Assembly: GCA_963718915.1 (NCBI GenBank)
Contig: CAVRAI010000007.1
Coordinates: 300,001-332,000 of the forward strand
From: an uncultured Chloroflexia bacterium
GTDB lineage: Bacteria > Chloroflexota > Ktedonobacteria > Ktedonobacterales > JADMIN01
DNA: 32,000 nt
Reading direction: 5' to 3'
Shown: positions 5,619 to 26,390 of the stretch, piece by piece
Layout: every line of letters begins with the position of its first letter
Numbering within the stretch: the first letter of the stretch is position 1
The notes under the pieces: model-generated
The model's input: the letters and a program-made list of their open reading frames with translations, nothing else
Databases searched by the model: none
What the model was told of the DNA's origin: nothing
Translations under genes and position numbers: made by a program

Positions 5619-8159
5619 TCAGGAACCTACTTGTATCGCGATCTGTAACGTTGGCACAGTTGCCTGCGCGACAGGTAGTGTGGCCGTCTGAGCGCTGAGG
5701 CTGCTTCCTGCCTGCACGGCCAGGTTCGCTCCCGCCGCGACATAGCTGTATCCATCGGTCGCGGTCGCCTGGGCGACGAATCCCGTGGGCCAGATGATGC
5801 GTTCTCTGGCAGGCTGCCAGCTTACCAGCAGCAGGCTCACAACACTGGTTGCGCCACTCCACGAGACGCCGTTGAACTGCGCCGAGGTTACGTGGCCGTG
5901 GCCCCCGTTGTCATTCGTGGCGAGGGCGCTCACCGCCAGGATGGGGCTGGCCGACGCGCCACGATAGGCGAGGACAATACCACCGCCATCCGCGTAGGAA
6001 GCCGCTCGGAGGGTGACCGTCGCGCCTGAGTCGGCGTTTGTGGCGATCTTCCACCACCAGTTCAACCCCTGCCTGTCAGGATGCCCCCCTCCGGCTCCTG
6101 CTGTCCAACCGGTAGGGGTGGTCCAGCTTGCCGGAGACCCATTCGAGCCTGCCGCCGCAATCAGCAGATCGCCTGCCTGCACGCCGGGAATCTTGATGCT
6201 GACGCCCGCGCTAAAGTTGCCCTTGGCCGTTGAGCTGCCGGTCAGCGTCATGCCAGTTGTGGGCGTAACCCCTGTCCCTGATAGCGGGACACTCTGCGGG
6301 CTGCCACCTGCGTTGTCGCTGATGCTCACCGCCGCGCTACGCGAACCTGCGACGGTGGGTGAAAACGTGACACTTATGGCGCAGGTGGCCCCAGACGCCA
6401 GGGTATTCGGGCTGATTGGGCAGTTAGCCGACTCGGCAAAATCAGCCGCGTTTGCCCCGCCCAGCGCAATACTACTGATGGTTAGCGACGCGGCGCCGCT
6501 ATTGGTCAGCGTGATCGACTGCGCCGCGCTCGTCGTTCCGACATTCTGGCTGCCGAAGCTGGCAGTGGTGGGGCTGAGTGTCACACCTGGGGCTGACGTT
6601 ACTCCCACGCCTGTCAGTGACAGGCTCTGCGGACTGTCGCTCGCGCTGTCGGTGATGCTCACTGTCCCGCTACGAGTTCCCGAAGCTGATGGCGTGAACG
6701 TGACACGTATCGTGCAGGAACCATGAGCGGCCAGCGTGCTGGGCGTCAGGGGGCAGGTCGTCGTCTCGGCAAAGTCGGCGGCATTCGTGCCGCTCACCGC
6801 GAGGCCGTTGATCGTCAAAGCGGCGTTACCCGAGTTGGTGAGAGTGACTGTCTGCGCGGCGCTGCTCGTCCCGACGTTCTGGCTGCCGAAATTGAGACTC
6901 GTCGGCGAGAGTGAGACGGCAGGCGCTAAGGAGGGCGCGTAGATGTTGGCAATGGACCACTGTTCCCAAATGCGCTGATACTGCTCGAATCCGTTCAATT
7001 GACCGCTGGGGGCCTGGTAGGTGGGATGGATGCAATCAGACGAAATCCAACTGTGATTCTGAGAGAACGGCGTCCACAGATCCGGGCCGCGAATGGCGCT
7101 GGGTCGATCAGTGGCGAGATGCGCATTCACGAAGGTATTCAACGCCTGGGCGTTCTGGCCCAGATCGCCATTGCAGCCCCACGGCACATATGGCACGATG
7201 GCAATCTTCCCGGCGCTCTGCGCGGCATCAATCATCGCGAGCATGTTCGCGTAGTAGGTCTGAATCTGGCTCGTCGAGAGCACATATGGCTCGTTGGCAT
7301 CGTTCGTGCCGAATGCCAGACTTACGTATTTGCCCGTAAAGCCACTCATCAGCGCGGCGATATTCTGCGCGCCATCGTCACTCGTCCAGCCGCCCATGCC
7401 GCCATCGATCTGCAGCGGATAGTAGGATGCGTCGGCGCTATGTACAAGCTGCGCGTAATCCCCACTCGTCCAGGGGCCACCGGCGACATTCGCCTGCGTC
7501 ATGCCTTCCTCAGTGATACTATCACCCAGGAAAAGCCAGTCATCCTGATCGCCCGCGCTCGCGTCATAGAGATCGAGATTGAACGCGGCGCTGGTGTTGC
7601 CGCTGGAGCCTTTGCTCCCCGTCACCGTCATACGCACCCAGTTATCACCGGAAAGATTGACGACATGCTCGCGCGCATTGCGTGTGTTGCCAGTCACAGT
7701 GAGCAGCGTAACCCATCCTGCGCTGGGCGGTGCGCCAGCGCCACCGGCTGCCGCATTGGCGTCAATCGTATAGTTCGACGGCAGGTTGTAGAAGATGTTA
7801 TCGGCGCCGGGCAAATACTCTCCCGAATCGTTAAACCAGGCCAGGATGACTTGCTGCCGTTTTGCCACAGGCACGGTCGAGAGATCCAGGGCAACCCAGA
7901 TGGGATGCGCGCTGCTGGGCGTATCCACGCTGTCCCAGACTGTGCCGTAATTCGTGTCGTTGGCCAGCGATGGATCATAGGCGTTGGGGTCGTTGGTGTA
8001 GGCGGGGAGATTGGCGGAGATCAGCGAGAGTGGCGTTAGGGCGGGCGAGGAGGCTGCATGCGCCTCGCGTGGTTGCCACCATGGTAGCGCGACGCATACG
8101 AGCGCCGCCAGCACAAGGAGGATGCCCCATTGGCGCACTGGATGCCGTCGCGTCGTCAT
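5619..8159 (-). CDS. Secreted multidomain hydrolase: discoidin-like domain, SGNH/GDSL esterase domain, two tandem Ig-like (choice-of-anchor-D-like) domains, unknown C-terminal domain
   Basis: The ORF extends to 8300, but I prefer the ATG at 8159 (MTTRRHPVRQWGILLVLAALVCVALP..AHAASS signal peptide; AGAAAGG upstream). SGNH block I is LFLGDSITEEG; the GTNDA block and block V DCIHPT are present. Repeats resemble ..FGSQNVGT(S/T)SAAQ..TLTNSG...NAADFAE...C.. The C-terminal 210 aa are unassigned. Confidence 0.85.
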   Translation of the reverse strand: MTTRRHPVRQWGILLVLAALVCVALPWWQPREAHAASSPALTPLSLISANLPAYTNDPNAYDPSLANDTNYGTVWDSVDTPSSAHPIWVALDLSTVPVAKRQQVILAWFNDSGEYLPGADNIFYNLPSNYTIDANAAAGGAGAPPSAGWVTLLTVTGNTRNAREHVVNLSGDNWVRMTVTGSKGSSGNTSAAFNLDLYDASAGDQDDWLFLGDSITEEGMTQANVAGGPWTSGDYAQLVHSADASYYPLQIDGGMGGWTSDDGAQNIAALMSGFTGKYVSLAFGTNDANEPYVLSTSQIQTYYANMLAMIDAAQSAGKIAIVPYVPWGCNGDLGQNAQALNTFVNAHLATDRPSAIRGPDLWTPFSQNHSWISSDCIHPTYQAPSGQLNGFEQYQRIWEQWSIANIYAPSLAPAVSLSPTSLNFGSQNVGTSSAAQTVTLTNSGNAALTINGLAVSGTNAADFAETTTCPLTPSTLAAHGSCTIRVTFTPSASGTRSGTVSITDSASDSPQSLSLTGVGVTSAPGVTLSPTTASFGSQNVGTTSAAQSITLTNSGAASLTISSIALGGANAADFAESANCPISPNTLASGATCAISVTFSPTVAGSRSAAVSISDNAGGSPQSVPLSGTGVTPTTGMTLTGSSTAKGNFSAGVSIKIPGVQAGDLLIAAAGSNGSPASWTTPTGWTAGAGGGHPDRQGLNWWWKIATNADSGATVTLRAASYADGGGIVLAYRGASASPILAVSALATNDNGGHGHVTSAQFNGVSWSGATSVVSLLLVSWQPARERIIWPTGFVAQATATDGYSYVAAGANLAVQAGSSLSAQTATLPVAQATVPTLQIAIQVGS
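6258..6926 (-). repeat. Tandem duplication of a roughly 111-aa Ig-like domain within the hydrolase gene
   Basis: Copy 1 is residues 459-569 of the 893-aa ORF (nt 6594-6926); copy 2 is residues 570-681 (nt 6258-6593). By eye well over half the positions are identical. This also produces the repetitive antisense ORFs 6013..6726 and 6736..6942. Confidence 0.85.
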
Positions 8160-8423
8160 GGCAGAGGGAACCTTTCTATTCTCAGGGTCAGGGGTTGAGG
8201 TGATAGGGTCAGGACATGTTTGTCGAGACGGATTGCATCGGGTTTGCGAGGATTGCCGCAGTGCCGTCAGAGACAAGTGGGAATGCGGTGATCGAGACAC
8301 GTCGCACGCAGCGATCTGGATGGCGATGTCCCGTTTTTAAGAAGCGGTACGCGAGATTCTCTTGTGGTATGGCGCTCGCTCGTCCCCGCCCATCATCCCC
8401 TCACCACGTGCAAGCATGCAATG

Positions 8424-11968: not shown

Positions 11969-13207
11969 CTATGACTCTACACGGCGGAGAATGACCACCG
12001 CGTTGTGGCCGCCAAAGCCCATGGACTCCGACATGGCGACCTTGATAGGCTTGCGGCGCGCCTCATTGGGCACGTAGTCAAGGTTACATTCTGGGTCGGG
12101 TGTCGTGTAGTTGATTGTCGGCGGGATGACGCCATCGCGGAGCGCCAGCGCCGTGAAGGCTATTTCGATGCCGCCCGCCGCGCCCATCAGGTGTCCCGTC
12201 ATCGATTTCGTGGAGCTGATCGGCAACTGTGGAGCGTACTCGCCAAAAACGTCGTTGAGCGCCGCCGTCTCGTCGCGATCATTGAACTTGGTCGAGGTGC
12301 CGTGCGCGTTCACGTAGTCCATATCTTCAAGTTTGAGGTCGGCCTTCTTCATCGCCCGTCGGATGGCGCGCGCCAGCCCCGCCCCTTTGGGCGCCGGTTC
12401 GGTGATGTGATGAGCGTCGGCGGTGCCAGCGTAGCCGATGATCTCGGCGTAGATATGCGCGCCACGCGCCCTGGCGGATTCCAACTCTTCGAGGATAAGG
12501 ATCCCCGCGCCCTCACCAGAGACAAAGCCATCGCGCGTTGCGTCGAACGGACGGCTGGCGTGTTCCGGATCATCGTTGCGGGTCGAGAGCGCGTGCATGC
12601 TGGCAAAGGCCGCTATCGACATCGGAGTAACGCCCGCCTCGGTCCCGCCCGCGATCATCACGTCCGCGTCGCCGCGCTTGATGACCTCCGCCGCCTCGCC
12701 AATAGCATGGGCGCCCGTAGCGCAGGCCGAGACGGTGGCGTAGTTGTGGCCGCGCGCGCCAAGCAACATAGAGACGTTGGCGCCTGCCAGATCGGCAGGC
12801 ATCATCGTGATGAAGAAGGGATTGAAGCGGTCGGGTGGACGCTCGAAGACCTGGTGAAAGCCCTGTTCCAGTGTCCAGAGGCCACCACTGCCTGAGCCGA
12901 TCACGACGCCAACCTCGTCGGCAATTGGCGCAATGTCCAGTTTAGCGTCAGCCTGGGCCTCCAGCGCCGCCGCCAGCGCGAAATGGGTGAAGCGATCGGT
13001 GCGCCGCACCAGCTTGCGGTCGATCACCGCGAGCGGATCGAAATCCTTGACCTCACCGGCGATCCGCACGTCATGGCGACTCGCATCGAAGCGCGTGATC
13101 GGCCCAACCCCCGATTTCCCCGCGCAGAGCGCAGCCCATGTGCTCGCCGTATCGTTGCCCAGTGGCGTCACCAGCCCGATGCCTGTTATCACGACCCGTC
13201 TCGTCAT
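11969..13207 (-). CDS. fabF: 3-oxoacyl-ACP synthase II (KAS II)
   Basis: The ORF reaches 13483, but the ATG at 13207 (GAGGGG upstream) gives the canonical N-terminus MTRRVVITGIGLVTPLGN. Active-site Cys in ATVSACATGAHAIG; His residues in VNAHGTSTKFND and SMTGHLMGAAGG. Confidence 0.9.
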   Translation of the reverse strand: MTRRVVITGIGLVTPLGNDTASTWAALCAGKSGVGPITRFDASRHDVRIAGEVKDFDPLAVIDRKLVRRTDRFTHFALAAALEAQADAKLDIAPIADEVGVVIGSGSGGLWTLEQGFHQVFERPPDRFNPFFITMMPADLAGANVSMLLGARGHNYATVSACATGAHAIGEAAEVIKRGDADVMIAGGTEAGVTPMSIAAFASMHALSTRNDDPEHASRPFDATRDGFVSGEGAGILILEELESARARGAHIYAEIIGYAGTADAHHITEPAPKGAGLARAIRRAMKKADLKLEDMDYVNAHGTSTKFNDRDETAALNDVFGEYAPQLPISSTKSMTGHLMGAAGGIEIAFTALALRDGVIPPTINYTTPDPECNLDYVPNEARRKPIKVAMSESMGFGGHNAVVILRRVES

Positions 13208-13365
13208 CGTTGAGTTCCCCTCTGCCTCAGCCCCAGAATGGTACGGCGCATGGCCACCTTGTCCGGCTATATGGTACCCCAAGATATCGCTATCAGCTAG
13301 TGTGTGGATGCGACTCTCTTGAGCTACTTGTCCGACCGTTCGTATGATAGCATGGCTCCGCACGA

Positions 13366-14232
13366 TTAACGGGCGGCGAGGAGCAACGTCGCGGCAAACT
13401 CCAGATGCCAGAGGATGAGGATGAGCGTCAGCACGCTCAACGCCGTATGGAGGTAACGCCAAACGCGGATGAGATGCAGACACAGCCGCTCCATGCCCAT
13501 CTCCTGGCGTATCGCCACCGCCTCCGAAGCCAGCGCTCCTTCCACGGCGGGCGACGCACTGTGCGAGCCGCCTCTGTGCTGCTGGTGGAGCAACGCGGGA
13601 ATCTCCTGGGGTGGCGCGCTCAAGTCATAATAGGCCAGATCCCACGGAACACTCGACGCGGCCTGCTGGCTGATAGGACGAGAGCGCTCCCGTCGTCGGT
13701 GGCGTTTCCAGGTGAGGGTGCTGACCAGCGCATCGAGACGCTCTTCGCCATCGGCGGTCAGGGTCTTCAGTGCGGCTCTGGCGGCCAGGCGAGGCGCGAT
13801 CCGGTCAAGCTGCTTGCCAATAATGCCGCTGACGACCAGCGCGATCAGGCTGTAGAGCGCATAAGCGCCTGTTCGCGGGTGGAAGTTGCCTGCCGAATGC
13901 GCGAGGATGAGCGCCAGCGCCAGGATGCCTCCCACGACATGCCAGGCGAGCGCGGTATGTAACAGCCCGAACCGCCCGCGCCATAGGCGCTTGCGCAGCG
14001 CATAGCCCGCGCCGACGAGGATGAGGAGCAACGTGCCAAGGATGGCGAAGATGTAGCCAGACCGGCTATCCGGCGCGACATCGCCTCCGCGCAGATAGGT
14101 CACATAGCCATACACCAGCGCGCCGCCGAGCGCAAGCCCACCCAGCGTGGCCGCCCACTGGCTGCGCGACCATCCGCCCGACCGTTGCCGTCGATGCTGC
14201 TGCGCGCGCCCTGGTGACGCTCCCGCTCTCAT
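13366..14232 (-). CDS. Polytopic membrane protein with two H-x13-H helices (putative di-heme b-type cytochrome subunit)
   Basis: About 5 predicted TM helices. Helix 3 is LLHTALAWHVVGGILALALILAH and the last helix is YLHTALSVLTLILILWH; each contains His-13 residues-His. The ATG at 14232 overlaps the ferredoxin stop as ATGA (an in-frame ATG also exists at 14238). Confidence 0.7.
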   Translation of the reverse strand: MRAGASPGRAQQHRRQRSGGWSRSQWAATLGGLALGGALVYGYVTYLRGGDVAPDSRSGYIFAILGTLLLILVGAGYALRKRLWRGRFGLLHTALAWHVVGGILALALILAHSAGNFHPRTGAYALYSLIALVVSGIIGKQLDRIAPRLAARAALKTLTADGEERLDALVSTLTWKRHRRRERSRPISQQAASSVPWDLAYYDLSAPPQEIPALLHQQHRGGSHSASPAVEGALASEAVAIRQEMGMERLCLHLIRVWRYLHTALSVLTLILILWHLEFAATLLLAAR

Positions 14233-14573
14233 CGCCATGGCGCTGCCCTCCCATCACGTCTTTCGCCTCGCCGACTTCTCGCGCCATCGACACTGCTGTG
14301 CAAGAGGCGCATTTTGAGCCATAGCATCATCGCGTCCCGATGCAGACCGACGGGGCAGACCGGCACACACGCCCCGCACTGATAGCACGCCTGCGCAAAG
14401 CGGGCAACATCCGGCGAGATGCGCTCTCCCAGCGTCTCGTGGTTCAGGGTCTCGATCTGAATTCGCATCGGGAGCGCCGGGCAGGCGGCAAGACATTCGT
14501 TGCAGCGAATGCACGCCGACACTTCCCCCGCTACCTGCGAGCGCGACTGATGCATCAATGCCATCCCTTCCAT
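14229..14573 (-). CDS. 2x[4Fe-4S] ferredoxin-type (Fe-S)-binding protein
   Basis: Two CxxCxxCxxxCP motifs: CIRCNECLAACP and CYQCGACVPVCP. The ORF extends to 14798 and overlaps the upstream gene. I prefer ATG 14573 (MEGMALMHQ..) or ATG 14555 (GGAAGGG 9 nt upstream). Confidence 0.75.
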   Translation of the reverse strand: MEGMALMHQSRSQVAGEVSACIRCNECLAACPALPMRIQIETLNHETLGERISPDVARFAQACYQCGACVPVCPVGLHRDAMMLWLKMRLLHSSVDGARSRRGERRDGRAAPWR

Positions 14574-14622
14574 GCGGACGGAGTCCCGCGGACGATGTTC
14601 TCCCGCTACTGAGGGACGGCGC

Positions 14623-16056
14623 TTATCCGGGCCAGGCGGCAATGGGCATGATCGTCTGATCCATGACTGGCTGGGGGATCGCGGCAGATTCGCCGGTTTC
14701 CAGCGCGTGCAGCCGCCGCTGGGTGAAGAAGGAGCGCACGTCAAAGTCCTCGCTGAGGAGCTTGCGCGTGATCTCTTCGATGTTGATTCGCTCGTCAATC
14801 AGGCGTTTGATGCTCAGGCCTGGGGGTGGATTGGCGCCCACGGCGAGAAATCCGACCAGATGGCCGTGGCGCACGACGAGACGCCGATAGAACGCACCAG
14901 AGCCGTTGGTGAGCACCTCATTTGCTGGATTATCCCGCTCCGAGAGCATCGGCGCGCCCGCGGCAAGCACATTCAGCTTCTCGAACTGGGTCGCGTGCCA
15001 GAAATTGCCTACCGCATCCAGCGCCACACCCTCCGATCCAGATAGCCCGGTGATTGCGGCAGCCGCGAGACGTCCCTGTTGGACGGCGAAGTACCACTGG
15101 CCACGCGCATCGTACTGGCTCGTCTGTGGATCGAGCACAGCCGCCACTGCTCCGGCGGCGTAAATGTCTCGCGCCGTCGTCTGCAGGCGTTCGTTCACAC
15201 GCATGCCGCGACCAGGCTTTGCCTCGATTGGTGTGCGCTGCGCCAGTGTGATGTCTGGCTGTGTCCCGATAGCCGCGATCACCAGCTCGCACGGAATGAA
15301 CGCGTTATCCGTGGTGATGACTCCCGCCACGACGCCCATCCGCCCGACGATTCCGCTCATCTCCGTCTCCAGCCGGATGTCCACGCCCTGCCGACGAACC
15401 TGCCGCAGCAGCAGGTCCGAGGCCGCGGGATCGAGCTGCCGTGGAAGGAGGCCACGCCCGCGGATGAGCCAGGTGACCTTCACGCGCTGATGGCGCAAGA
15501 GCATCGCGGTTTCGGCGGCATGGTAGCCACCGCCGATGACGACCGCCGCCGAGACGGTTGCCAGCCGACGCCGCAGATCGAGGTAGTCGCTCAATGTGTG
15601 CAGCGTTATGACGCCATCGAAATCCCGGCCAGGCAAGTCGTCCGGCAGATGCATTGCCGTGGCTCCGGTGGCGATCAGCAGGCTGCGATACTGGATGGTG
15701 CGCCCGTCGGACAGGCGCACGCGATGGCCCGACGGTTCGATGGCAGCCACCTGTCGGTGGATCATCCCAATACCCAGGTGCTGCTGCGTGCCAGCGGAGT
15801 AGGCCAATAGTTGATCGAGTTCGAGTCGGCCAGCGCCAAACTGCTTGAGGGCTGGCGTGTTGATTGTTGGGTGATTCTGCTCCGAGATCACCAGAATGCG
15901 CGCGTCTGGAGCGTGTTGCCGTGTCTCCATGGCGGCGATGCAGCCCGCGATGCCGTTGCCAATCACGACCAGGTCCGCGCGGTCGGTAGGTGGCGCGCTT
16001 CCCTCGCCATGCGCCGCGCCGCCTGCTCCCTGGTCTGCCGGACGCGCGCGCTCCAC
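14623..16056 (-). CDS. FAD/NAD(P)-dependent oxidoreductase (Pyr_redox_2-type; rubredoxin/ferredoxin reductase or NirB-N-terminal-like)
   Basis: 477 aa, GTG start. Dinucleotide folds DLVVIGNGIAGCIAA and AAVVIGGGYHAAETA; ATG-type motif LLIATGA. No CxxxxC redox disulfide and no Nox-type active Cys (region reads TINTPALKQF). Confidence 0.8.
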   Translation of the reverse strand: MERARPADQGAGGAAHGEGSAPPTDRADLVVIGNGIAGCIAAMETRQHAPDARILVISEQNHPTINTPALKQFGAGRLELDQLLAYSAGTQQHLGIGMIHRQVAAIEPSGHRVRLSDGRTIQYRSLLIATGATAMHLPDDLPGRDFDGVITLHTLSDYLDLRRRLATVSAAVVIGGGYHAAETAMLLRHQRVKVTWLIRGRGLLPRQLDPAASDLLLRQVRRQGVDIRLETEMSGIVGRMGVVAGVITTDNAFIPCELVIAAIGTQPDITLAQRTPIEAKPGRGMRVNERLQTTARDIYAAGAVAAVLDPQTSQYDARGQWYFAVQQGRLAAAAITGLSGSEGVALDAVGNFWHATQFEKLNVLAAGAPMLSERDNPANEVLTNGSGAFYRRLVVRHGHLVGFLAVGANPPPGLSIKRLIDERINIEEITRKLLSEDFDVRSFFTQRRLHALETGESAAIPQPVMDQTIMPIAAWPG

Positions 16057-16148
16057 GGCGGGAATCTTAAAGGTTCCTAGCGCGTCGAACAGCGTGTGCT
16101 TCCCTTGTGAATGTAGCGGCAGCCGCAGACGCTGACTTGGTCGCGAAT

Positions 16149-16220
16149 TCAGTCGCCGCGGCTGGGATGGCTGGGATGGCTGGACGGCTGGGACGGCTGA
16201 GATGAATTGTTAGGCCGCAT
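16149..16220 (-). CDS. Candidate leader mini-ORF (23 aa; 45 aa if the in-frame TTG at 16286 is used)
   Basis: AAGGAGG (16233-16227), 6 nt, then ATG (16220). Translation MRPNNSSQPSQPSSHPSHPSRGD, stop TGA at 16151-16149. An in-frame TTG at 16286 is also preceded by AAGGAGG at 5 nt. The body is encoded by the 9-bp microsatellite. No homology evidence. Confidence 0.3.
   Translation of the reverse strand: MRPNNSSQPSQPSSHPSHPSRGD
16161..16204. repeat. Tandem repeat, 9-bp unit GCTGGGATG x5 (one 8-bp unit)
   Basis: gctgggatg gctgggatg gctggacg gctgggacg gctgagatg. About 105 nt upstream of the oxidoreductase start. Confidence 0.95.
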
Positions 16221-16221
16221 A

Positions 16222-16340
16222 GGCGCCTCCTTCTCTCTCGTTCTTCCTCTCGTTCTTCCTGACGCCTTCTGGCTTCCTTGCCTCAATAGAGCCTCCTTGC
16301 ATCCTGTGTGCTTCCCTGCACTACCAGGCGCCTCCTTGCG
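16222..16340 (-). promoter_or_regulatory. Purine-rich (minus strand) spacer with three perfect AAGGAGG motifs and a 12-bp x2 repeat
   Basis: Plus-strand CCTCCTT at 16227-16233, 16292-16298 and 16331-16337. GGCGCCTCCTT is repeated exactly at 16222-16232 and 16327-16337. CTCGTTCTTCCT x2 at 16237-16260. Confidence 0.5.
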
Positions 16341-16357
16341 CCACGCCGCCCGTTTCG

Positions 16358-16699
16358 CTAGTCCGCCACCCAGGCTAGCGGCAATCCCTGAGGCTGGTCC
16401 TGATAGAAGACGTCGGTAGGCGCGTGTTCCTGGAGATGGCGTTGAATGTGGGCGAGCGAGATGGGCGCTCCCTGCGCGATACGGAACCAGACCATTTTTA
16501 CGTGGCCCGGCACGCGCACCGCGAACCGGTTTCCCGCTTGCATCGCGACGACGATTCCGTGGATGTGGTCCAGGTGCGACGGAGTCTCCGGCTCGAGCGC
16601 CCGCAATCCCTGCAAGGCACAGAGGGTTCCTACGCCTACCAGCGCCAATACCACCACACAGGCCGCGAGCCTTGGGAAACGGACAAGGAGGCCCATCAC
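16358..16699 (-). CDS. Small N-terminally anchored membrane protein (hypothetical)
   Basis: 113 aa. TM helix LAACVVVLALVGVGTLCAL, then a His-rich soluble part (HLDHIHGIVV..HVKMVWF..HIQRHLQEH). GTG/ATG start at 16699/16696, directly after the upstream stop (TAAGGTGATG), suggesting coupling. Confidence 0.6.
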   Translation of the reverse strand: MMGLLVRFPRLAACVVVLALVGVGTLCALQGLRALEPETPSHLDHIHGIVVAMQAGNRFAVRVPGHVKMVWFRIAQGAPISLAHIQRHLQEHAPTDVFYQDQPQGLPLAWVAD

Positions 16700-16700
16700 C

Positions 16701-18143
16701 TTACGCCCCCGCCTGGGCCTGTGGTGTGGGTGTCGTGAACGTCACATCCACGACGACACCGTCACTATTCTGGACAAGCTGGATTGGGCTGGACTGATGC
16801 AGCAGCCCCGTGCAGTTCAACTCATCCGAGCCAATGGTGACCGACAGACGGGCGGCCAGGAAGGTATAGAGACTGTTGGCAACCCCCGAATCCAGCGACG
16901 CCGCCGACTCGGTCCACGTCTGATCCAACTGGATGCGTTGGGGCGCGACCGTCATCAAGTTCTGGCAGTAGGCGCGGTTCTGCGCGGTTGCCTCGGCGGT
17001 CGAACGCACCCACGGCTGGTCTACGCCGATGCGATACAGATTCTGCTTGAGCAGGTTCGGACGCCCATTGACCAGCGTCATGGGATCGCCACTGGGCACA
17101 AGCGCGACGGGCGCGGCCTGATACATCGCCGCCTGTAGCTCGTCGAGCGGCTGGGCGGTCACCATCTGGCCTGGATCGGCGAGGTCGGGCGCTTTCCATG
17201 GCGTGCAACCAAGCGCCGTATCCATCGCGATGGCGACCAGCCGGTTGTCGCTGCCGTTTGCCAGCACGCTGCTATCTGGGAATTGGTTCGCGGTTGCGGC
17301 GGTATCCTGAGCAAGTTTCCCGTCCTGGGTAATACGATACGTGGACGTGACATTATCGCTCTGATCCTGATCCACCACCGAGAAGTCGCGCACCGTGGGG
17401 CATACCTTGCCATCGTTGCCCGTACCCAGCGCTGGTGGCGTGAGTTTCTTCAGTTGAATTTGGCGATTGGCGGCGGCGAAGAAGGCGGGCGCGTGGCAGT
17501 AGGAAACCTGGCCAAAGGCCGAGCTTCCGAGGCCATCGACGCACTGGCCCTCTGCCAGTGTGGTAAAAGTCGCCCCCCGAAGACGGAGCATTGTCCCATT
17601 CGAGCCGAACCAGATGCCGACGACCGCGTTGGCGGGCAGGTTCGGAACGACTGGGGCGACGGCGGGTTGTGTCCCCTGATCGATGACCAGCGGATTGTAG
17701 ATTGAGATCTGGCCGGTGGCTGGATCAAGCACCGCCGCCTGCACAAACGCCGCGGTACCGCTATCCGTCTCATGGCAGGGTGAGCCGCCGACATCGCTGC
17801 CTGTCAATTGATAGGGTGTCGCCAGACCGCGCGCGGTGAGCGGATGTTGTGGGACGATCAGCGCGCATCCACTCTGCCGCCGCTGACCATGCCGCGCGCC
17901 CAGCGCTGCCTCAGACTCATGGTTTGTCCCGCCGCCCGCGCCTCTTGCGCCTCCTGCGCCGCCCGCGCCATGGGCCGATGTCCACGGGAAGTGTCCTGAT
18001 CCCCAGAATGCCGCAGCCACCGCCGCCAATACCATCACCCAGCCCAGCACGGGCAGGAGTATCATCCAGCGGGACTTTGCTCCCAGTTTCCGTGCATGCG
18101 CCCGCTCACTGTGCATCTGCTGTCGTAAGTGCGACTGTTGCAT
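16701..18143 (-). CDS. Exported Cys-rich hypothetical protein
   Basis: The ORF reaches 18272. The ATG at 18143 has AGGAGG 9 nt upstream (alternative ATG at 18161). N-terminal TM/signal WMILLPVLGWVMVLAAVAAAFWG, Gly-rich segment, then a roughly 400-aa domain with 8 Cys. No motif I recognise. Confidence 0.7.
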   Translation of the reverse strand: MQQSHLRQQMHSERAHARKLGAKSRWMILLPVLGWVMVLAAVAAAFWGSGHFPWTSAHGAGGAGGARGAGGGTNHESEAALGARHGQRRQSGCALIVPQHPLTARGLATPYQLTGSDVGGSPCHETDSGTAAFVQAAVLDPATGQISIYNPLVIDQGTQPAVAPVVPNLPANAVVGIWFGSNGTMLRLRGATFTTLAEGQCVDGLGSSAFGQVSYCHAPAFFAAANRQIQLKKLTPPALGTGNDGKVCPTVRDFSVVDQDQSDNVTSTYRITQDGKLAQDTAATANQFPDSSVLANGSDNRLVAIAMDTALGCTPWKAPDLADPGQMVTAQPLDELQAAMYQAAPVALVPSGDPMTLVNGRPNLLKQNLYRIGVDQPWVRSTAEATAQNRAYCQNLMTVAPQRIQLDQTWTESAASLDSGVANSLYTFLAARLSVTIGSDELNCTGLLHQSSPIQLVQNSDGVVVDVTFTTPTPQAQAGA

Positions 18144-18463
18144 ACCGTGACGCCTCCTCATCCTTGCACTGTGTGTCACGAAAGGAATCGCGTTCGAGGC
18201 CACCGCTTTGCGCGCCAAGCTCAACCTCAACAGAGGCAATAGTAGCCGCCTATCTTGTGCAGCGTAACCCAACTAGTCCATATTGGCTAACCTGCGTTAC
18301 CAAAACATGCCGACTACGTTTTAAGAAATTCACTGGCGATTCCGCGCGGACGTGGCCAAGGACCATACTCGCGAGCATGGTCGCGCTGTGGCATCGCTTG
18401 TGCGTATTCTATGTGCATCAAAACAGCCTGCGGGCGTTATCGACCAATGGAGTATCGTGAGCG

Positions 18464-20401
18464 ATGTCGCAGCAAACGGTATCTGGACGAGCGCATGGGC
18501 AGGGTCTCGCTCCCGTCTCGGCGGTCTGGGCGGAAGGTGACTTTGCGGTGCATCCCCTTGCCCTGGCGGCGCCACTGATCGACGGACGCGCGGCTATGCT
18601 GACGATGTGCGTCTCGTTCCTGCTGGCGCGTACGAGCATCTGGATTGCCGATTGGAGCATCTATGCGCGACTGGCGCTGGTGCGCGGCCAGGATCAACGG
18701 GCAGGTCAGGATGGTTCCGATGCGCAATATGCCCTGATCGAGCGTCTGCGCGCCGTTGGGCTGGATAGCGATGCCATCGCGCTCTGGCGCTCTGGCGGCC
18801 TTTCGCTGGTGGATGTGCTGGGGCTGGCGGTGCGCCGTGGCGTCGATGTGCGCGTCTTGCTCTGGGATCCGCTCGACCCATTCTATCTGGGCCACCTGGG
18901 GAATGACCCTGCGGCACAGGCGGAGATCCTTGCACGGCAAGGTGTGCCGTATCGGCTGGATAAGAACTGTCGCTCGGTGCTCCATCTCGCGCAGGGACTG
19001 CACCAGAAATGCGCTGTCGTGGATAGCCAGGTAGCCTTTGTCGGCGGTATCGACCTCACCGTCGAATATTCCGGCGACTTTGATCGCTGGGATACCTCCA
19101 ACCATCCGTTCGCATCGGCACTGCGCAATACCGACCGTGGCGCCTCGCCGCATCCCTGGCATGATGCCCAGGTGATGCTTACGGGAGACGCGGTTCTGGA
19201 TGTGGAGCAGAACCTGCGCCAGCGTTGGGATGCCTCGGCTGGCCGCACGCAACAGCGCATTCAGCCGCCGGGCGATCTCATTCGTGGCATGCGTGGAGCA
19301 ATCGAGAAAAGCGGGCGCCATCTCCAGGGGCGGACCGAGCAGGCGCACGATGGCGCGCCTGTACCCCAGCATAGTGCGGATCGTACCGAGGCGCGAGCGA
19401 GCCAATCCGAGGGGCGTCTCCAGATCGTGCGGACTATCCCGGCGCTGACCTATCGTTTCGCGCCCGGTGGCATCTATGGCATCGCGCAGTGGTATCAGCG
19501 GGCGGTTCGACGGGCCGAGCGCTTTATCTACCTCGAAACCCAGTATCTCTGGGTCGAAGGCCCACCAAAGCTGAACTTTACGCGCTTGGGATGGGAGAGC
19601 CGCAAGATGCGCGCGCTCGTGGAAGAGCTAGCGGCGGCGGCGGAACGTGGCGTCCGCATTGTGCTGGTCTTGCCCGACCACCCAAATATTGGCCGCGCTG
19701 TGACCGATGATACGATTGGGTGGCTTCGCCGCCACGCGCCAGAGGCCACGGCGGCAAATCGCGTGCGGGTCTATACCCTGGCCACCTCCAGCGCTGCCGA
19801 CGATGGCATGATGCGTTACCGCCCGGTCTACGTTCACGCCAAGATTGGGATCGTCGATGATCGCTGGGCAATCGTCGGCTCGGCTAACCTCAACAGTCGC
19901 GGCATGAGCCACGACGCCGAGTTGTCTGTCGCCATCGACGATGATGCATCCGCGCGCGGGTTGCGGCGAATCCTCTGGACGGAGCATACTGCCGCGCCGC
20001 TGCCGGGCGATATGCCATGGCCGCTTGGCGACCTCGCCCTGGCGAACCAGACACCAGGCATGCAGCTTGCCGGACGCGCGCTGGCGCTGGTGGATGCGCT
20101 GGCGGCGATGCCCGATACTGGCCTGCCGACCACTCTATCAACTCCATCGCCGGAAGCGGATGCCCTGGCCGCGAGTCTGGCCGATCCCGAAACGGGCATG
20201 CGGGAGCTTGCGCGCCTGGCGGACAAGAATCTGAGCCATTTGCGCAATGGCGAGCCGCTCTCCGGTCATCTGCTGCCTTATCTTCGGGCCGCCGATGGGC
20301 CAGAATATGGGCTGACTGTCGAGCGACATCGCGGCCTGCTCGATCCATTGCGTGAGGTTCGTGAGGGGGTCGTCGTACCACACTACAACCGCTATATCTA
20401 G
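18464..20401 (+). CDS. Phospholipase D / transphosphatidylase superfamily protein (two HKD motifs)
   Basis: 645 aa. HKD 1 is LHQKCAVVDSQVAFVGGIDLT; HKD 2 is VHAKIGIVDDRWAIVGSANLNSRG. The WHDAQVMLTGDAV block is typical of PLD/Cls-type enzymes. No obvious TM helices. Confidence 0.85.
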   Translation: MSQQTVSGRAHGQGLAPVSAVWAEGDFAVHPLALAAPLIDGRAAMLTMCVSFLLARTSIWIADWSIYARLALVRGQDQRAGQDGSDAQYALIERLRAVGLDSDAIALWRSGGLSLVDVLGLAVRRGVDVRVLLWDPLDPFYLGHLGNDPAAQAEILARQGVPYRLDKNCRSVLHLAQGLHQKCAVVDSQVAFVGGIDLTVEYSGDFDRWDTSNHPFASALRNTDRGASPHPWHDAQVMLTGDAVLDVEQNLRQRWDASAGRTQQRIQPPGDLIRGMRGAIEKSGRHLQGRTEQAHDGAPVPQHSADRTEARASQSEGRLQIVRTIPALTYRFAPGGIYGIAQWYQRAVRRAERFIYLETQYLWVEGPPKLNFTRLGWESRKMRALVEELAAAAERGVRIVLVLPDHPNIGRAVTDDTIGWLRRHAPEATAANRVRVYTLATSSAADDGMMRYRPVYVHAKIGIVDDRWAIVGSANLNSRGMSHDAELSVAIDDDASARGLRRILWTEHTAAPLPGDMPWPLGDLALANQTPGMQLAGRALALVDALAAMPDTGLPTTLSTPSPEADALAASLADPETGMRELARLADKNLSHLRNGEPLSGHLLPYLRAADGPEYGLTVERHRGLLDPLREVREGVVVPHYNRYI

Positions 20402-20453
20402 CGAATTGATGCGCGGCGGCGGGAGCGGAAGCGATTTGAGAAAGAGAAGAGTG

Positions 20454-21224
20454 ATGGCATCATCCTCGGAGCAGACGCCGGATAAGGCGTTCTCGGAAAG
20501 CGTGGCGCTCGAACCGGTCTCGCAGCGCTGGACTCGTCGTGACACCAAACTCATCGCCGGGCTGTGGGCGCTCACCGCTGTCGCATTGACGCTGCTCTCA
20601 ATCGCGGCGCATTTTAGCGCCGAATTTCCCGGCGACGAAGGCATCGCCATTCTCATTCAGAAGATATCGTTCCCGCCACTGGCCCATTTCATCGAGTTCA
20701 GCAGTGATGCCAACTGGCCTGCTCCAGCGGCATATGCAGCGCTCGCCATCATTATTGTCCTGTTGCTGGCGCGGCAGCTCAGCGCCGCCATTGCGGCGGT
20801 GGTCGCGTCGTTTGGCGCAGACCTCGCCAATGTGATACTGAATGCGCTCGTTGCACGATCACGCCCCCACAACATCCATATTCACGTGGTCGCCGACCTC
20901 GGACTGTACAGCTTTCCATCGGGACATGTGACCCATGTGGTCACGTTCTATGGCTTTCTCCTCTATCTCACGTTCCGCTTCGCGCGCGAGCATCCGCGGT
21001 GGACGCCGCTGCTGTGGGGCGTGCGGATAGTCTGTCTCTATTTCCTGGTTTTTATTGGTCCGGCGCGGGTGCTGGAGGGCGAACACTGGCCGAGTGACGT
21101 ACTGGGCAGCTACCTGCTGGCCAGCCTGATGCTGGTGGTTGCCATCGCGCTCTATCACCTGCTGCTGCTGGGATTCGCGCGGCTGCGGGACTGGCTTGCG
21201 ATACGGCGGTCGCGGCTTGCCTGA
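20454..21224 (+). CDS. PAP2-family (type 2 phosphatidic acid phosphatase-like) membrane phosphatase
   Basis: PAP2 motifs: ..ARSRP.., SFPSGH, and ARVLEGEHWPSDVLG (SR-x5-H-x3-D-like). Multiple TM helices. The ORF opens at 20352 and overlaps the PLD gene. The ATG at 20454 has a purine-rich GAGAAAGAGAAGAG upstream (alternative ATG at 20409). Confidence 0.8.
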   Translation: MASSSEQTPDKAFSESVALEPVSQRWTRRDTKLIAGLWALTAVALTLLSIAAHFSAEFPGDEGIAILIQKISFPPLAHFIEFSSDANWPAPAAYAALAIIIVLLLARQLSAAIAAVVASFGADLANVILNALVARSRPHNIHIHVVADLGLYSFPSGHVTHVVTFYGFLLYLTFRFAREHPRWTPLLWGVRIVCLYFLVFIGPARVLEGEHWPSDVLGSYLLASLMLVVAIALYHLLLLGFARLRDWLAIRRSRLA

Positions 21225-21746: not shown

Positions 21747-23264
21747 TTATTCCTCCTGATAGTACTCGAGGCCGAGGTGGGTGATCTGCTCTTCGCCCAT
21801 CATCCAGCGAAGCGTGTTCTTCAGCTTCGTCTGCTGGATGAAGAAATCGTGCTCCGGGTACACAGTGGCGGCGTGCTGCGGGCTTTTGAAGTAGAAGGAC
21901 AGCCATTCCTGGATGCCCTTCATGCCGGCTCGCTTGGCCAGGTCGAGGAAAAGAGCGAGGTCAAGAAGAAGTGGCGCGGCGAGAATCGAATCGCGGCACA
22001 GGAAGTCGATCTTTATCTGCATGGGGTAGCCGAGCCAGCCGAAGATGTCGATGTTGTCCCAGCCCTCTTTGTTGTCGCCCCGGGGCGGGTAATAGTTGAT
22101 CCGCACCTTGTGATAGACGTCGCTATAGAGTGCGGGGTAGAGCTGGGGCTGGAGGATGTACTCGAGGACGCCGAGCTTCGACTCTTCCTTGGTCTTGAAG
22201 CTCTCTGGGTCGTCAAGAACCTCACCATCGCGATTGCCGAGGATGTTCGTCGAGTACCAGCCGTTGAGGCCGAGCATGCGCGCCTTCAGCATCGGCGCGA
22301 GAACCGTCTTGATCAGGGTCTGGCCGGTCTTGAAGTCCTTGCCGCAGATCGGAACGCCCTGGTCGACTGCCAGCTTGACCAGCGCCGGGATGTCAGCAGT
22401 CAGGTTGGGGGCGCCGTTAGCGAAGGGGATGCCTTCCATCAGGGCGGCATAGGCGTAGAGCATCGAGGGGGCGATAGTTTCGTCGTTGGCGTTGAGCGCC
22501 GCCTCAAAGCTTTCGAGGTTGAGGTGGCTTGGTCCCTCCTCCATGTAGATCTCGGTCGAGGCGCACCAGACCATGACGAGGCGGTCGCAGTTGTTTGCGG
22601 ACTTGAAGTTGCGAATGTCCGCGCGAATCTGCTCGGTCAGCTCCATCTTCGTGCCGCGCTTGACGTTAGGCCCGTTGAGGCGCTTGACGTAGTACTGGTC
22701 GAATGCGGCCGGCATTGGCGTGATGGACTTGAGGAAGTCGGCGATGGGTTCGATGTGTTCGTAGCGGTCAAGGACGCCGCACTTCACCGCTGCCTCGTAG
22801 GCGTTGTCGGGGAAGGGGTCCCAGGCGCCGAAGACAATGTCGTCCAGGTTCGCGAGCGGGACGAACTCGCGGATGAGGGGCGAGCGATTTTCCGTTCGCT
22901 TGCCAAGGCGGATCGTGCCCATCTGGGTGAGCGAGCCTACGGGTCGGCCGCTGCCGCGACGGGCGTGCTCGACGCCGCTGATGAACGTTGAGGCGACGGC
23001 GCCGAGGCCGACGAGAAGGATGCCGAGGCGGCCCTCTGCCGGCTGGATCGGGTCGGGCTTGAGTTCGACGAAGTCTTTTGCTTCCAAGATCACACCTCTC
23101 TGGCGGCCGAGTGACATGAGCGGCACTTGCCATTGGGCTGGTACCCGCCCTGTCCTCGCCCAGTGTTCGATAGTACTCTGCCTCTTGCCAAGCAGGGCGG
23201 CAAGAGCGCTCTGGCCGCCGAAGCGCCTGATTATCCGCTCGGCGGCGTTCGATCCTTGTTCCAT
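21747..23264 (-). CDS. ino1: myo-Inositol-1-phosphate (inositol-3-phosphate) synthase with a roughly 65-aa N-terminal HTH-like extension
   Basis: The MIPS core starts at the Rossmann segment RLGILLVGLGAVASTFISGVEHA and includes GWYSTNILGNRDG and NIDIFGWLGYPMQIKIDFLCRDSILAAP. The ORF opens with TTG at 23300. The ATG at 23264 has AGGA 8 nt upstream. The N-terminus MEQGSNAAERIIRRFGGQSALAALLGKRQSTIEHWARTGRVPAQW reads like a Cro/YdaS-type helix-turn-helix. Confidence 0.88.
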   Translation of the reverse strand: MEQGSNAAERIIRRFGGQSALAALLGKRQSTIEHWARTGRVPAQWQVPLMSLGRQRGVILEAKDFVELKPDPIQPAEGRLGILLVGLGAVASTFISGVEHARRGSGRPVGSLTQMGTIRLGKRTENRSPLIREFVPLANLDDIVFGAWDPFPDNAYEAAVKCGVLDRYEHIEPIADFLKSITPMPAAFDQYYVKRLNGPNVKRGTKMELTEQIRADIRNFKSANNCDRLVMVWCASTEIYMEEGPSHLNLESFEAALNANDETIAPSMLYAYAALMEGIPFANGAPNLTADIPALVKLAVDQGVPICGKDFKTGQTLIKTVLAPMLKARMLGLNGWYSTNILGNRDGEVLDDPESFKTKEESKLGVLEYILQPQLYPALYSDVYHKVRINYYPPRGDNKEGWDNIDIFGWLGYPMQIKIDFLCRDSILAAPLLLDLALFLDLAKRAGMKGIQEWLSFYFKSPQHAATVYPEHDFFIQQTKLKNTLRWMMGEEQITHLGLEYYQEE

Positions 23265-23276
23265 GGTAGATATCCT

Positions 23277-23291
23277 AACGAATTTTTCGTT
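23277..23291. promoter_or_regulatory. Perfect AT-rich palindrome AACGAA-TTT-TTCGTT at the MIPS start (candidate operator or RNA hairpin)
   Basis: 6-bp arms, 3-bp spacer. Lies 13-27 nt upstream of ATG 23264 and abuts the SD. It fills the 17-bp spacer of a weak candidate promoter: TTGCAT (23300-23295) and TAGGAT (23277-23272). Confidence 0.45.
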
Positions 23292-24878: not shown

Positions 24879-26390
24879 TCAGGCGCACACATCTTCCCGC
24901 TCGCGCTCATCGTCTACCACGCTATCCGTCTCGGCCCGCGGAGTCGCCCCACGTTTGAGTACCGTCGCCGCCAGCGCAATCGCCAGCAGCGTGAGACCCG
25001 CGCCGATAGCCCAGGCAAGGTGATAGCCACCGCTCAGCGCCGCCGTGAGGTTACGGCCATCGGCAAGCAACTGGCCCGTCCGCGTGGAGGAGAGCGTGGC
25101 AAGTATCGCCAGGCCCAGCGAGGCGCCAACCTGCATGGTCGTGTTGAGCAGACCGGAGGCCAGCCCGGAGTCGCTGGGTGTCGCGTCAGCCATGGCCACG
25201 ATGGTCAGCGCTGGGAAAGCCAGCCCACCACCGATGCCGAGCAGTGTCATCGGCAGCAACAAGTCGCGCAGATAGTCGCTTATCATCGGCCCCTGCGCCA
25301 GCAGCACGAGCCCCGCGGCGATCATGACCAGCCCCACGAGCAGCACAGCGCGCGCGCCGAAGCGCATGATGAGCCGCGCCGACCAACTGAGCGAGAGCGC
25401 GCCCATTCCCACCGCGACCGGGAGAAAGGCGAGGCCAATCTCCATCGGGCCATAGCGGAGCACGCGCTCGAGGTTGAGTGAGCCGAGGAAGAAGAATCCG
25501 AAGAACGCGGCCACCATGACGGCCTGAATCAGATTCGCCCCCGAGAGATTGCGCGAGCGGAAGAGGCGTAGCGGCAGAATGGGGTTACGGGCCATCGCCT
25601 GGCGCACAATAAACGCGGCGAGCAGGCCAAGCGCCACCGCGCCCAGACCGAGCGTGCGCGCCGATCCCAGGCCGTAATTGGCCGAGTCGACGATGGTATA
25701 GACGCCCAGCATCAACGCCGCCGTGACCAGGATGGCGCCGATCACGTCAGCTCCCTTGCCGAGACCAATGCCAGGGTCGTTCTCAAGCAGGCGCGCGCCC
25801 ACCAGCGCGGTCGCCAGGCCAATGGGGAGGTTGACGAAGAAGATCCAGTGCCAGCTCATCGCCTGCGTAATCAGGCCGCCCGCCAGCAACCCAACCGAGG
25901 CGCCAGCCGACGCCACGAAGCTGAAGATGCTAATGGCGCGGGCGCGTTCGCCTGGCTCCGGGAACATCGTCACCACCATGCCCAGAATGACCGCCGAACT
26001 GACCGCGCCGCCGACACCTTGAATAAACCGGGCGGCGATCAGCAGCGGCTGGCTGAACGACAGGCCACAGAGCACCGAAGCGGCGGTAAAAATGACCAGC
26101 CCGGCTAGAAAGATGCGCTTGCGGCCAATCAGGTCGCCGAGTCGTCCGGCCAGCAGCATGATCCCAGCATAGGCGATCAGATACGCATTGACGACCCAGG
26201 CCAGGCTGGACTGCGAGAAGCCGAGGTCGCGCTGGATCGACGGCAGCGCCACGTTGACAATGGTGGAATCCACGACGATCATCAGAAAGCCCGCGCAGAG
26301 GATGAAGAGTGATAGCCAGCGCGCGTTGTCTGGCCGGGTAATCGCCATGAGACGCATGCCTGCTTTGGTCTGCCCTGCTGTGGCATTCAT
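24879..26390 (-). CDS. MFS transporter, DHA2 (EmrB/QacA-like, 14-TM) drug:H+ antiporter family
   Basis: 503 aa. N-terminal FLMIVVDSTIVNVALPSIQRDLGFS and GRLGDLIGRKRIF motifs are typical of DHA2. AAGGAG lies 6 nt before the ATG. Confidence 0.88.
   Translation of the reverse strand: MNATAGQTKAGMRLMAITRPDNARWLSLFILCAGFLMIVVDSTIVNVALPSIQRDLGFSQSSLAWVVNAYLIAYAGIMLLAGRLGDLIGRKRIFLAGLVIFTAASVLCGLSFSQPLLIAARFIQGVGGAVSSAVILGMVVTMFPEPGERARAISIFSFVASAGASVGLLAGGLITQAMSWHWIFFVNLPIGLATALVGARLLENDPGIGLGKGADVIGAILVTAALMLGVYTIVDSANYGLGSARTLGLGAVALGLLAAFIVRQAMARNPILPLRLFRSRNLSGANLIQAVMVAAFFGFFFLGSLNLERVLRYGPMEIGLAFLPVAVGMGALSLSWSARLIMRFGARAVLLVGLVMIAAGLVLLAQGPMISDYLRDLLLPMTLLGIGGGLAFPALTIVAMADATPSDSGLASGLLNTTMQVGASLGLAILATLSSTRTGQLLADGRNLTAALSGGYHLAWAIGAGLTLLAIALAATVLKRGATPRAETDSVVDDEREREDVCA

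Follow-up and report, generated by a model that had tools for sequence, protein, structure and literature searches.

A stretch of 32,000 nucleotides (nt) from a soil Ktedonobacterales genome (Chloroflexota; contig CAVRAI010000007.1), here called the window, carries three tightly packed genes on the minus strand at 13366-16056. They encode a flavoprotein, a ferredoxin with motifs for two [4Fe-4S] clusters and a polytopic membrane protein in which four histidines are invariant. This trio is real, conserved, previously uncharacterised and, with its three small genes, experimentally tractable. We consider it fairly probable that the products form one membrane-bound complex by which electrons from NAD(P)H in the cytoplasm reach the outer side of the membrane. 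By analogy, it would functionally be a split counterpart of NOX and Fre-MsrQ that contains iron-sulfur (FeS) clusters. We infer haem binding, subunit contacts, direction of flow and acceptor from gene content, motifs, conservation, synteny, fusions and gene neighbourhoods.

Gene order and conservation of the cluster

The genes in question are listed from the first to the last. The coordinates of the open reading frames (ORFs) confirm the three tightly packed minus-strand genes that a preliminary description of the window had reported.

16701-18143, minus strand: large protein, 480 amino acids (aa) as annotated, ORF open to 18272; first gene of five
16358-16699, minus strand: small protein, 113 aa, N-terminal transmembrane (TM) anchor and a domain of ~75 aa; directly upstream of the flavoprotein gene
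14623-16056, minus strand: flavoprotein, 477 aa, GTG start, Pyr_redox_2
14229-14573, minus strand: ferredoxin, 2x[4Fe-4S], 114 aa, matches to Fer4_8, Fer4_7 and Fer4_9
13366-14238, minus strand: membrane subunit, 290 aa, five predicted TM helices, N-in/C-out

Synteny was scanned in one genome per GTDB species. The 20 loci returned all stem from Ktedonobacterales bins, two of them labelled merely 'uncultured Chloroflexia'. In the first three loci examined, the trio is preceded by two more genes without Pfam match, homologous to 16701..18272 and 16358..16699 of the window, and the outer flanks vary while the order of the five genes stays. The conserved unit hence comprises the genes of the large protein, the small protein, the flavoprotein, the ferredoxin and the membrane protein. 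All Ktedonobacterales loci with sufficient flank show this order, with membrane-protein identities going from ~90% down to 43%, and the flavoprotein gene always adjoins the ferredoxin and membrane genes. The trio is found again at the more distant relative P0110 (locus L028) with overlapping junctions, the identities being 50% for the flavoprotein, 60% for the ferredoxin and 37% for the membrane protein. Gene order thus supports a conserved unit. The co-occurrence of the trio that was to be expected from the preliminary description holds for the Ktedonobacterales loci and L028, but the unit counts five genes and not three.

The overlap of the ferredoxin stop with the start of the membrane gene in an ATGA is present at 14232..14229. 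It joins the second Met of the membrane ORF, however, and from the annotated ATG at 14238 the two genes overlap by 10 nt.

In public databases the flavoprotein is labelled 'FAD-dependent oxidoreductase' or 'NAD(P)H-nitrite reductase large subunit', the ferredoxin 'ferredoxin' and the membrane subunit 'hypothetical protein'. Every source has both the membrane subunit and the 113-aa product as 'hypothetical', and the large protein too wherever it bears a name, with the sole exception of an evidently spurious JGI label 'NapE component'. No description of the trio was found in the literature searched, in line with the earlier remark that it could not be matched to a characterised system.

The gene of the small protein always lies between those of the large protein and the flavoprotein. 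Its distance to the latter ranges from 26 nt (L001) to ~300 nt in the window, where the gap (16057-16357, 300 nt) contains a purine-rich tract and a 9-bp tandem repeat of ~5 copies at 16160-16204. A 23-codon ORF preceded by GGAGG (MRPNNSSQPSQPSSHPSHPSRGD, 16220..16149, minus strand) was considered as a leader peptide and rejected. It is absent from relatives at ~86-92% protein identity and probably not functional. A promoter and terminator scan was uninformative, with counts at shuffle level.

Flavoprotein and ferredoxin

The flavoprotein belongs to Pyr_redox_2 (PF07992) with 166.5 bits and an E-value of 1.2e-48 at a cut-off of 26.1, and reaches 53 bits with Pyr_redox. Both dinucleotide folds are recognised by their motifs:

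15943-15960, minus strand: FAD-binding GxGxxG (G33-N-G-I-A-G38), read from the sequence, kept in 20 orthologs
15451-15534, minus strand: NAD(P)H-binding Rossmann motif from G175-G-G-Y-H-A180 through the end of beta-2 (W-L-I-R199-G-R201-G), conserved

The protein has 2 Cys in all and no CxxxxC pair, hence no redox-active disulfide. Thus, the two folds and the missing Cys pair had been described correctly. The best NCBIfam matches are HcaD, the N-terminus of NirB, PadH and NorW, all far under the equivalog cut-offs (e.g. 128.8 against 450 for HcaD). The C-terminal domain matches Rubredoxin_C with 12 bits, and the closest PDB sequences are the ferredoxin reductases 3LXD, AorC (8C0Z_E), BphA4 and putidaredoxin reductase. 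Judged by these matches, the flavoprotein is an FAD/NAD(P)H oxidoreductase with two dinucleotide-binding domains, probably from the branch of ferredoxin and rubredoxin reductases. According to the specificity rule for the glutathione-reductase family, Arg instead of an acidic residue at the end of the second beta-2 goes along with a preference for NADPH. The conservation of Arg199 and Arg201 suggests such a preference, which makes NADPH the likely donor.

The ferredoxin has the two clusters that had been reported for the 114-aa protein:

14478-14513, minus strand: cluster motif I, C21xxC24xxC27xxxC31P, in the sequence; conserved
14352-14387, minus strand: cluster motif II, C63xxC66xxC69xxxC73P, in the sequence; conserved

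The motifs are separated by 31 residues. The top Pfam match is Fer4_8, the dicluster family with long spacer, over the full length of the model (39.7 bits), followed by Fer4_7 (38.0 bits; cut-off 27 each). All 8 Cys are kept in 22 orthologs, as expected from a dicluster ferredoxin, and so is the C-terminal helix GLHRDAMMLWLKMRLL. Neither a TM segment nor a signal peptide is predicted from the sequence. Fer4_8 also covers the C-terminal domain of SdhB and HdrC.

Membrane subunit

Two of the five predicted TM helices, WHVVGGILALALILAH (H100..H114, TM3) and LHTALSVLTLILILWH (H264..H278, TM5), contain H-x13-H each, so that the polytopic protein with two such helices is found as described before. 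The four positions are the following:

13939-13941, minus strand: codon of His100, predicted ligand of the inner (cytoplasmic-side) haem b, pairing with His264; invariant
13897-13899, minus strand: codon of His114, predicted ligand of the outer haem b, pairing with His278; invariant
13447-13449, minus strand: codon of His264, predicted ligand of the inner haem b; invariant
13405-13407, minus strand: codon of His278, predicted ligand of the outer haem b; invariant

A word-index search returned 102 clusters of close homologs, all of them annotated as 'hypothetical' and derived from metagenome bins of Ktedonobacterales or Chloroflexi. H100, H114, H264 and H278 are invariant in 29 close homologs with identities of 42-88% (alignment A1). 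When the alignment is extended to 46 members down to 16% identity (A2), with distant relatives at 16-25%, the sole invariant columns are H100, H114, G138, G141, W260, H264 and H278. Thus, the conservation of all four His, on which the preliminary description depended, is borne out at both distances.

H94, which belongs to the first 'LHTAL', varies among the 29 close homologs and is not a predicted ligand. The two LHTAL strings, formerly taken as a sign of internal duplication, are out of register by 6 residues and their likeness is coincidental. The two His helices are nevertheless alike at profile level: hhalign aligns TM3 and TM5 in the same register with a common W-x3-H-x13-H (probability 92.7%), while TM4 as a control against TM5 yields 0.4%.

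The topology was derived from hydropathy, AlphaFold2 helices and the distribution of Lys and Arg. The latter follows the positive-inside rule with 6, 4 and 15 K/R on the three cytoplasmic segments and 1 on either outer loop. Both His helices, TM3 and TM5, cross the membrane in outward direction, which leaves H100 and H264 at a depth of ~6-7 residues from the cytoplasmic face. H114 and H278 follow 14 residues further outward, so that one His pair comes near each membrane face. This predicted geometry is that expected for two stacked bis-His b haems. Between TM4 and TM5 a helical insert of ~110 aa with the conserved motif PWDLAYYDL..IP.LL is found on the cytoplasmic side. Residues conserved in the family at the outer face are D53, P56, D57 and S58 in the TM1-TM2 loop as well as G117, N118 and R122 after His114. 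The predicted topology would place the FeS and flavin partners in the cytoplasm, which supports the proposed complex.

Upstream ectoproteins

Both proteins encoded upstream of the trio are predicted to be anchored in the membrane. In the small protein, H84, R87, H88, E91, T95, D96 and Y99 are invariant (alignment A6). It has no match in Pfam, NCBIfam or PDB and no detectable relatives of known function. It also has a C-terminal A-D.

In the large protein a TM anchor at the N-terminus is followed by a Gly/Ala linker and a Cys-containing ectodomain of ~380 aa. Its alignment shows seven invariant Cys and the motif V-V-D-Q-D-Q-S-D-N-V. The AlphaFold2 model is confident (pLDDT 77.8, pTM 0.76). As no match was obtained in Pfam, NCBIfam, a sequence-profile search of the PDB or Foldseek against the PDB, the modelled ectodomain may represent a new fold. 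The family comprises >4,294 clusters, far more than that of the trio. Its members are also found where the trio is missing, for example as stand-alone genes in Tengunoibacter (L026) and elsewhere (L027). Gene order makes the two ectoproteins candidate extracytoplasmic partners or acceptors.

Wider family and its neighbourhoods

An exhaustive profile search with the membrane protein found 1,504 representative proteins at E<=1e-3 and 221 at E<=1e-10. It therefore belongs to a large, unnamed family of ~1,500 clusters at 50% identity. Among the 46 members of A2, 19 match DUF4405, mostly weakly and two of them over the threshold of 26.7 bits (P0195 with 30.1 and P0175 with 28.2 bits). Ni_hydr_CYTB (PF01292) is matched by 19 of the 46 below threshold and at the last helix, Ferric_reduct (PF01794) weakly by 11; some relatives bear a precomputed PF01794 label.

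In P0247 (GCA_024278315.1, L029 1809-6234), a TM helix at the N-terminus, a Fer4 dicluster, a Pyr_redox_3/YpdA-like flavoprotein and the four-His membrane domain are fused in a single protein of 773 aa. This Rosetta-stone fusion supports the assumption that the separate proteins of the trio form one complex. The gene directly after P0247 encodes a multihaem cytochrome c of 698 aa with nine Cytochrome_C7 stretches. P0383 likewise adjoins a multihaem cytochrome gene, and in another subgroup of relatives such a gene lies immediately upstream. Three more distant relatives are on contigs too short to tell anything about their neighbours. In one bin of Thermoanaerobaculia, the membrane gene starts where that of a 790-aa flavoprotein-cNMP_binding-Fer4 protein ends, and an FHA-multihaem cytochrome comes next.

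The acidobacterial-type subgroup was sampled in 80 soil-metagenome loci (L035-L114). The fused flavoprotein-cNMP-Fer4 gene abuts the membrane gene in all 39 loci whose upstream sequence is available. Downstream sequence is available for 40 loci. In 27 of them the ORF directly downstream has 3 or more CxxCH, and nearly all contain an ORF with 8-10 CxxCH at some place in the locus. Apparent in-frame fusions of flavoprotein and membrane protein in four acidobacterial loci were rejected as overlapping open frames in high-GC DNA.

Here (L033 3629-9998; L035-L114) the cluster begins with a ~790-aa protein made of a Pyr_redox_3/YpdA-like flavoprotein, two cNMP_binding domains and Fer4. The four-His membrane protein, an FHA protein with about ten CxxCH and an HbpS-like protein come next, with Ser/Thr kinase genes nearby. 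By its gene content, this looks like a signalling-controlled system exporting electrons from NAD(P)H to multihaem cytochromes. No description of this variant was found in the literature searched.

What recurs is the architecture, in which an NAD(P)H flavoprotein of the cytoplasm is combined with [4Fe-4S] clusters, a membrane protein with the four His and a redox partner on the extracytoplasmic side. More tentatively, and with less than even confidence, the membrane protein could found a family of four-His dihaem proteins that pair with varied NAD(P)H-flavoprotein/FeS modules and export reducing power past the quinone pool. The acceptors would be decahaem cytochromes in soil Acidobacteriota, as part of a regulated route of extracellular electron transfer. 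In Ktedonobacterales they would be the pair of Cys-containing ectoproteins of novel fold, whose redox chemistry has not been described.

Proposed electron path

NAD(P)H, likely NADPH, would reduce the FAD of the ferredoxin-reductase-type flavoprotein. From the FAD, electrons would go one at a time to the dedicated ferredoxin with its two [4Fe-4S] clusters. One-electron transfer to FeS is proposed because the nearest solved relatives of the flavoprotein (ferredoxin, putidaredoxin and rubredoxin reductases, AorC) operate in this way. The ferredoxin probably docks with its C-terminal helix on the cytoplasmic insert of the membrane subunit. From there, conservation and topology suggest a path to the inner haem b (His100/His264) and on to the outer haem b (His114/His278).

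At the outer haem the electrons would leave to an extracytoplasmic acceptor. Such an acceptor is indicated by the multihaem c-type cytochromes beside relatives and by the ectoprotein genes that are always present in the Ktedonobacterales cluster. We favour a protein over menaquinone, O2 or ferric iron. In Ktedonobacterales either of the membrane-anchored upstream ectoproteins would be the most likely candidate; in distant relatives a multihaem cytochrome c would take this place.

If this is true, the trio represents a third construction principle for transmembrane export of electrons from NAD(P)H, beside NOX/FRE/STEAP and Fre-MsrQ. To our knowledge, none of NOX, FRE, STEAP and Fre-MsrQ uses an iron-sulfur relay or a flavoprotein of the glutathione-reductase fold. 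Such conduits would then be widespread in the poorly studied soil phyla Chloroflexota and Acidobacteriota, and a large family now called 'hypothetical' would obtain a function. Moreover, a quinone-independent route to extracellular multihaem cytochromes would exist, with the two ectoproteins as candidate terminal redox partners.

Comparison with known systems

The nearest known kind are four-His transmembrane cytochromes (the ferric-reductase domain of NOX, MsrQ, DUF4405, PepSY/FoxB) and not the cytochrome b of bc1 complexes or the anchor of succinate:quinone oxidoreductases (SQR). The comparison with bc1-type cytochrome b drawn in the preliminary description is hence abandoned. In bc1 and b6f complexes, H-x13-H stands on helices B and D of a protein with 8 TM helices or split into 4+3, and Rieske and cytochrome c1/f proteins are the partners. 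The window protein has no Pfam match to cytochrome b (Cytochrom_B_N models), no Rieske or cytochrome c1 gene is found in the cluster, and the His spacing alone is common.

NOX5, SpNOX and the ferric-reductase superfamily (PF01794) share with the trio the proposed path from NAD(P)H via FAD and two stacked b haems to the outside. In NOX the bis-histidyl motifs are located in TM3 and TM5 (PMC5676040), which is also where the four His of the window protein stand in pairs. In contrast, NOX unites an FNR-type dehydrogenase domain and six TM helices in one polypeptide and lacks FeS clusters. The trio has a separate flavoprotein of the glutathione-reductase fold, a 2x[4Fe-4S] ferredoxin and a membrane protein of 5 TM helices with a cytoplasmic insert of 110 aa. 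In spite of H-x13-H on TM3 and TM5, the window protein gives no match to PF01794 and is predicted to have 5 TM helices instead of six.

In the split Fre-MsrQ-MsrP system the acceptor is a periplasmic protein (PMC5676040). Like the trio, the E. coli system combines a soluble cytoplasmic flavin reductase, a haem-b conduit in the membrane and, as we propose for the trio, an extracytoplasmic protein acceptor. MsrQ is described in the literature as a flavohaemoprotein or flavocytochrome. The system has no FeS protein and its acceptor is a molybdoenzyme, unlike the candidate acceptors of the trio, which show no known cofactor motif. The genes msrP and msrQ are adjacent, and MsrQ is reported with one b haem and flavin.

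For DUF4405, haem b binding was shown by experiment and a role as transmembrane electron carrier was proposed (PMC11334425). DUF4405, PepSY-like proteins (FoxB, PDB 7ABW) and FezC are membrane electron carriers with four His and two haems, as is predicted for the window protein. The DUF4405 systems described are tied to ApbE and flavinylated extracytosolic proteins, whereas neither apbE nor a flavinylation partner was found at the trio loci examined. The DUF4405 and cytochrome-b models named in the preliminary description gave no match to the window protein, which is unmatched by DUF4405 (PF14358, threshold 26.7 bits) even at E<=1 and by Ni_hydr_CYTB/prokaryotic cytochrome b561 (PF01292, threshold 30.1 bits) as well.

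The succinate-dehydrogenase-like layout on a different flavoenzyme, as it was put before, is structurally apt. A precedent is NrcDEFN of Thermus thermophilus, in which an NDH-2-like flavoenzyme is joined by a small ferredoxin and a polytopic membrane protein, and which is described as similar to succinate dehydrogenase (SDH) in structure (PMC7694296). Nrc, here compared by description only, delivers its electrons to nitrate reductase or menaquinone and differs from the trio by having an SdhB-like protein (NrcF) as fourth subunit. Dihaem SQR of type B (Bacillus, Wolinella) shows the same order of flavoprotein, FeS, proximal haem and distal haem. However, SdhA is an FAD_binding_2 enzyme with covalent FAD, SdhB has 2Fe, 4Fe and 3Fe clusters and the anchor has its His on four helices. 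SQR and fumarate reductase subunits are not found in the trio: FAD_binding_2 covers residues 28-59 of the flavoprotein only (the Rossmann start with the N-terminal GxGxxG), the SdhB subfamily model scores 19.2 bits with the ferredoxin at a cut-off of 243, and SdhC/D anchors are unmatched.

QmoABC of sulfate reducers combines Pyr_redox-type HdrA-like flavoproteins with an HdrC-like 2x[4Fe-4S] module and a dihaem b membrane domain. Unlike the trio, it has an HdrE/NarI-type, quinone-interacting anchor in QmoC, and its flavoproteins carry FeS clusters of their own. No NCBIfam match at the level of HdrA, HdrC or HdrE was obtained for the trio.

Weighing the explanations

Several observations weigh against electron export by a dihaem complex. 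The AlphaFold2 model of the membrane subunit (6 helical elements) is of merely moderate confidence (pLDDT 67.6, pTM 0.48), and its Foldseek search against the PDB was not significant, with cytochrome b561, STEAP and NarI at E>5 only. The window protein has no match in Pfam or NCBIfam. The profiles of A1 and A2 match no solved structure among the PDB sequences apart from coiled-coil noise caused by the cytoplasmic insert. The above-threshold DUF4405 matches of P0195 and P0175 span a single helix. The flavoprotein and FeS partners of the distant relatives are non-orthologous to those of the window, so that function can be transferred from these systems by analogy only. As to the acceptor, neither ectoprotein has a recognisable redox-cofactor motif or CxxCH, and invariant His are missing from the large protein. 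The assumption that the latter acts as acceptor is weakly founded, because its family is far larger than that of the trio and also found alone.

A respiratory NAD(P)H:menaquinone oxidoreductase resembling dihaem SQR or Thermus Nrc is a less favoured and rather unlikely explanation, by which a quinone site at the outer face would receive the electrons of the flavin via FeS and two haems, or supply them in the reverse direction. The cofactor order would be identical, and the Fer4_8-type ferredoxin is of the kind also seen in SdhB and HdrC. The conserved outer-face residues (D53, P56, D57, S58, G117, N118, R122) could make a quinone pocket, and the Ktedonobacterales clusters are devoid of multihaem cytochromes. 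NrcDEFN, moreover, is a characterised NADH dehydrogenase described as SDH-similar (PMC7694296). However, the two ectoprotein genes are always co-conserved, and relatives of the membrane protein adjoin extracytoplasmic multihaem cytochromes and not quinone-dependent enzymes. SdhA, SdhB and SdhC are not significantly matched, and tblastn with membrane protein and ferredoxin returned nothing from 72,556 plasmids, for which the inclusion of the Nrc-bearing Thermus plasmids was unchecked. Quinone, to which the preliminary description led the electrons of the complex, hence stays one option, while ectoproteins and multihaem neighbours favour an extracytoplasmic acceptor.

The same path might end in a small molecule at the outer haem, i.e. 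O2 yielding superoxide as in NOX or ferric iron and its chelates as in FRE, STEAP and FoxB, with the ectoproteins as passengers or accessory factors. We regard this as improbable. Paired bis-histidyl TM helices as described for TM3 and TM5 of NOX, the weak Ferric_reduct matches in 11 of 46 relatives and the occurrence of the large-protein family without the trio would agree with it. Within the same structural class, the PepSY/FoxB and FezC cytochromes are also tied to iron redox (PMC11334425). Yet the order of the five genes is strict down to 43% identity, the window protein reaches no ferric-reductase-domain model and the flanks in the window encode nothing related to iron. Very improbable is a complex working in reverse, by which electrons from an external donor or quinol would be driven inward to ferredoxin or NAD(P)+. 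Ferredoxin-NAD(P) reductases are reversible and the multihaem cytochromes beside relatives could serve electron uptake, but inward flow would oppose the negative-inside potential and run uphill from haem b to [4Fe-4S] and NAD(P)+, and Pfam scans of the trio and the window proteins revealed no ion-translocating subunit for coupling. Finally, the genes could be neighbours without physical or functional link. The modest confidence of the membrane-subunit model would agree with this view, which is strongly disfavoured and hardly credible given synteny that is invariant over >20 divergent loci, overlapping stop and start codons, recurrence of the trio in L028, the natural fusion of all three domain types in P0247 and the non-orthologous flavoprotein-Fer4 genes that adjoin relatives in 39 of 39 loci.

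Other features of the window

At the 3' end of the membrane gene, a FabF-like beta-ketoacyl synthase ORF (11969-13483, minus strand, 504 aa) overlaps by 118 nt when read from its first start codon. This ORF is probably over-extended. The true start would be the Met of MTRRVVITGIG near 13210, because the Pfam match begins at residue 95.

The flanks contain two PLD-like genes, a PAP2 phosphatase, a myo-inositol-1-phosphate synthase and a GDSL lipase with Ig-like domains. The coordinates of these genes are:

2007-3392, plus strand: flank gene of the lipid theme
18464-20401, plus strand: flank gene of the lipid theme
20352-21224, plus strand: flank gene of the lipid theme
21747-23300, minus strand: flank gene of the lipid theme
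5619-8300, minus strand: flank gene of the lipid theme

This phospholipid/inositol-lipid theme is unrelated to the redox cluster and not kept beside it in other genomes. At 25001-26000 the AT skew jumps to 0.31 at a GC content of 0.66. This region lies within an MFS transporter gene (24879..26390, minus strand), and the jump probably results from codon or amino-acid composition.

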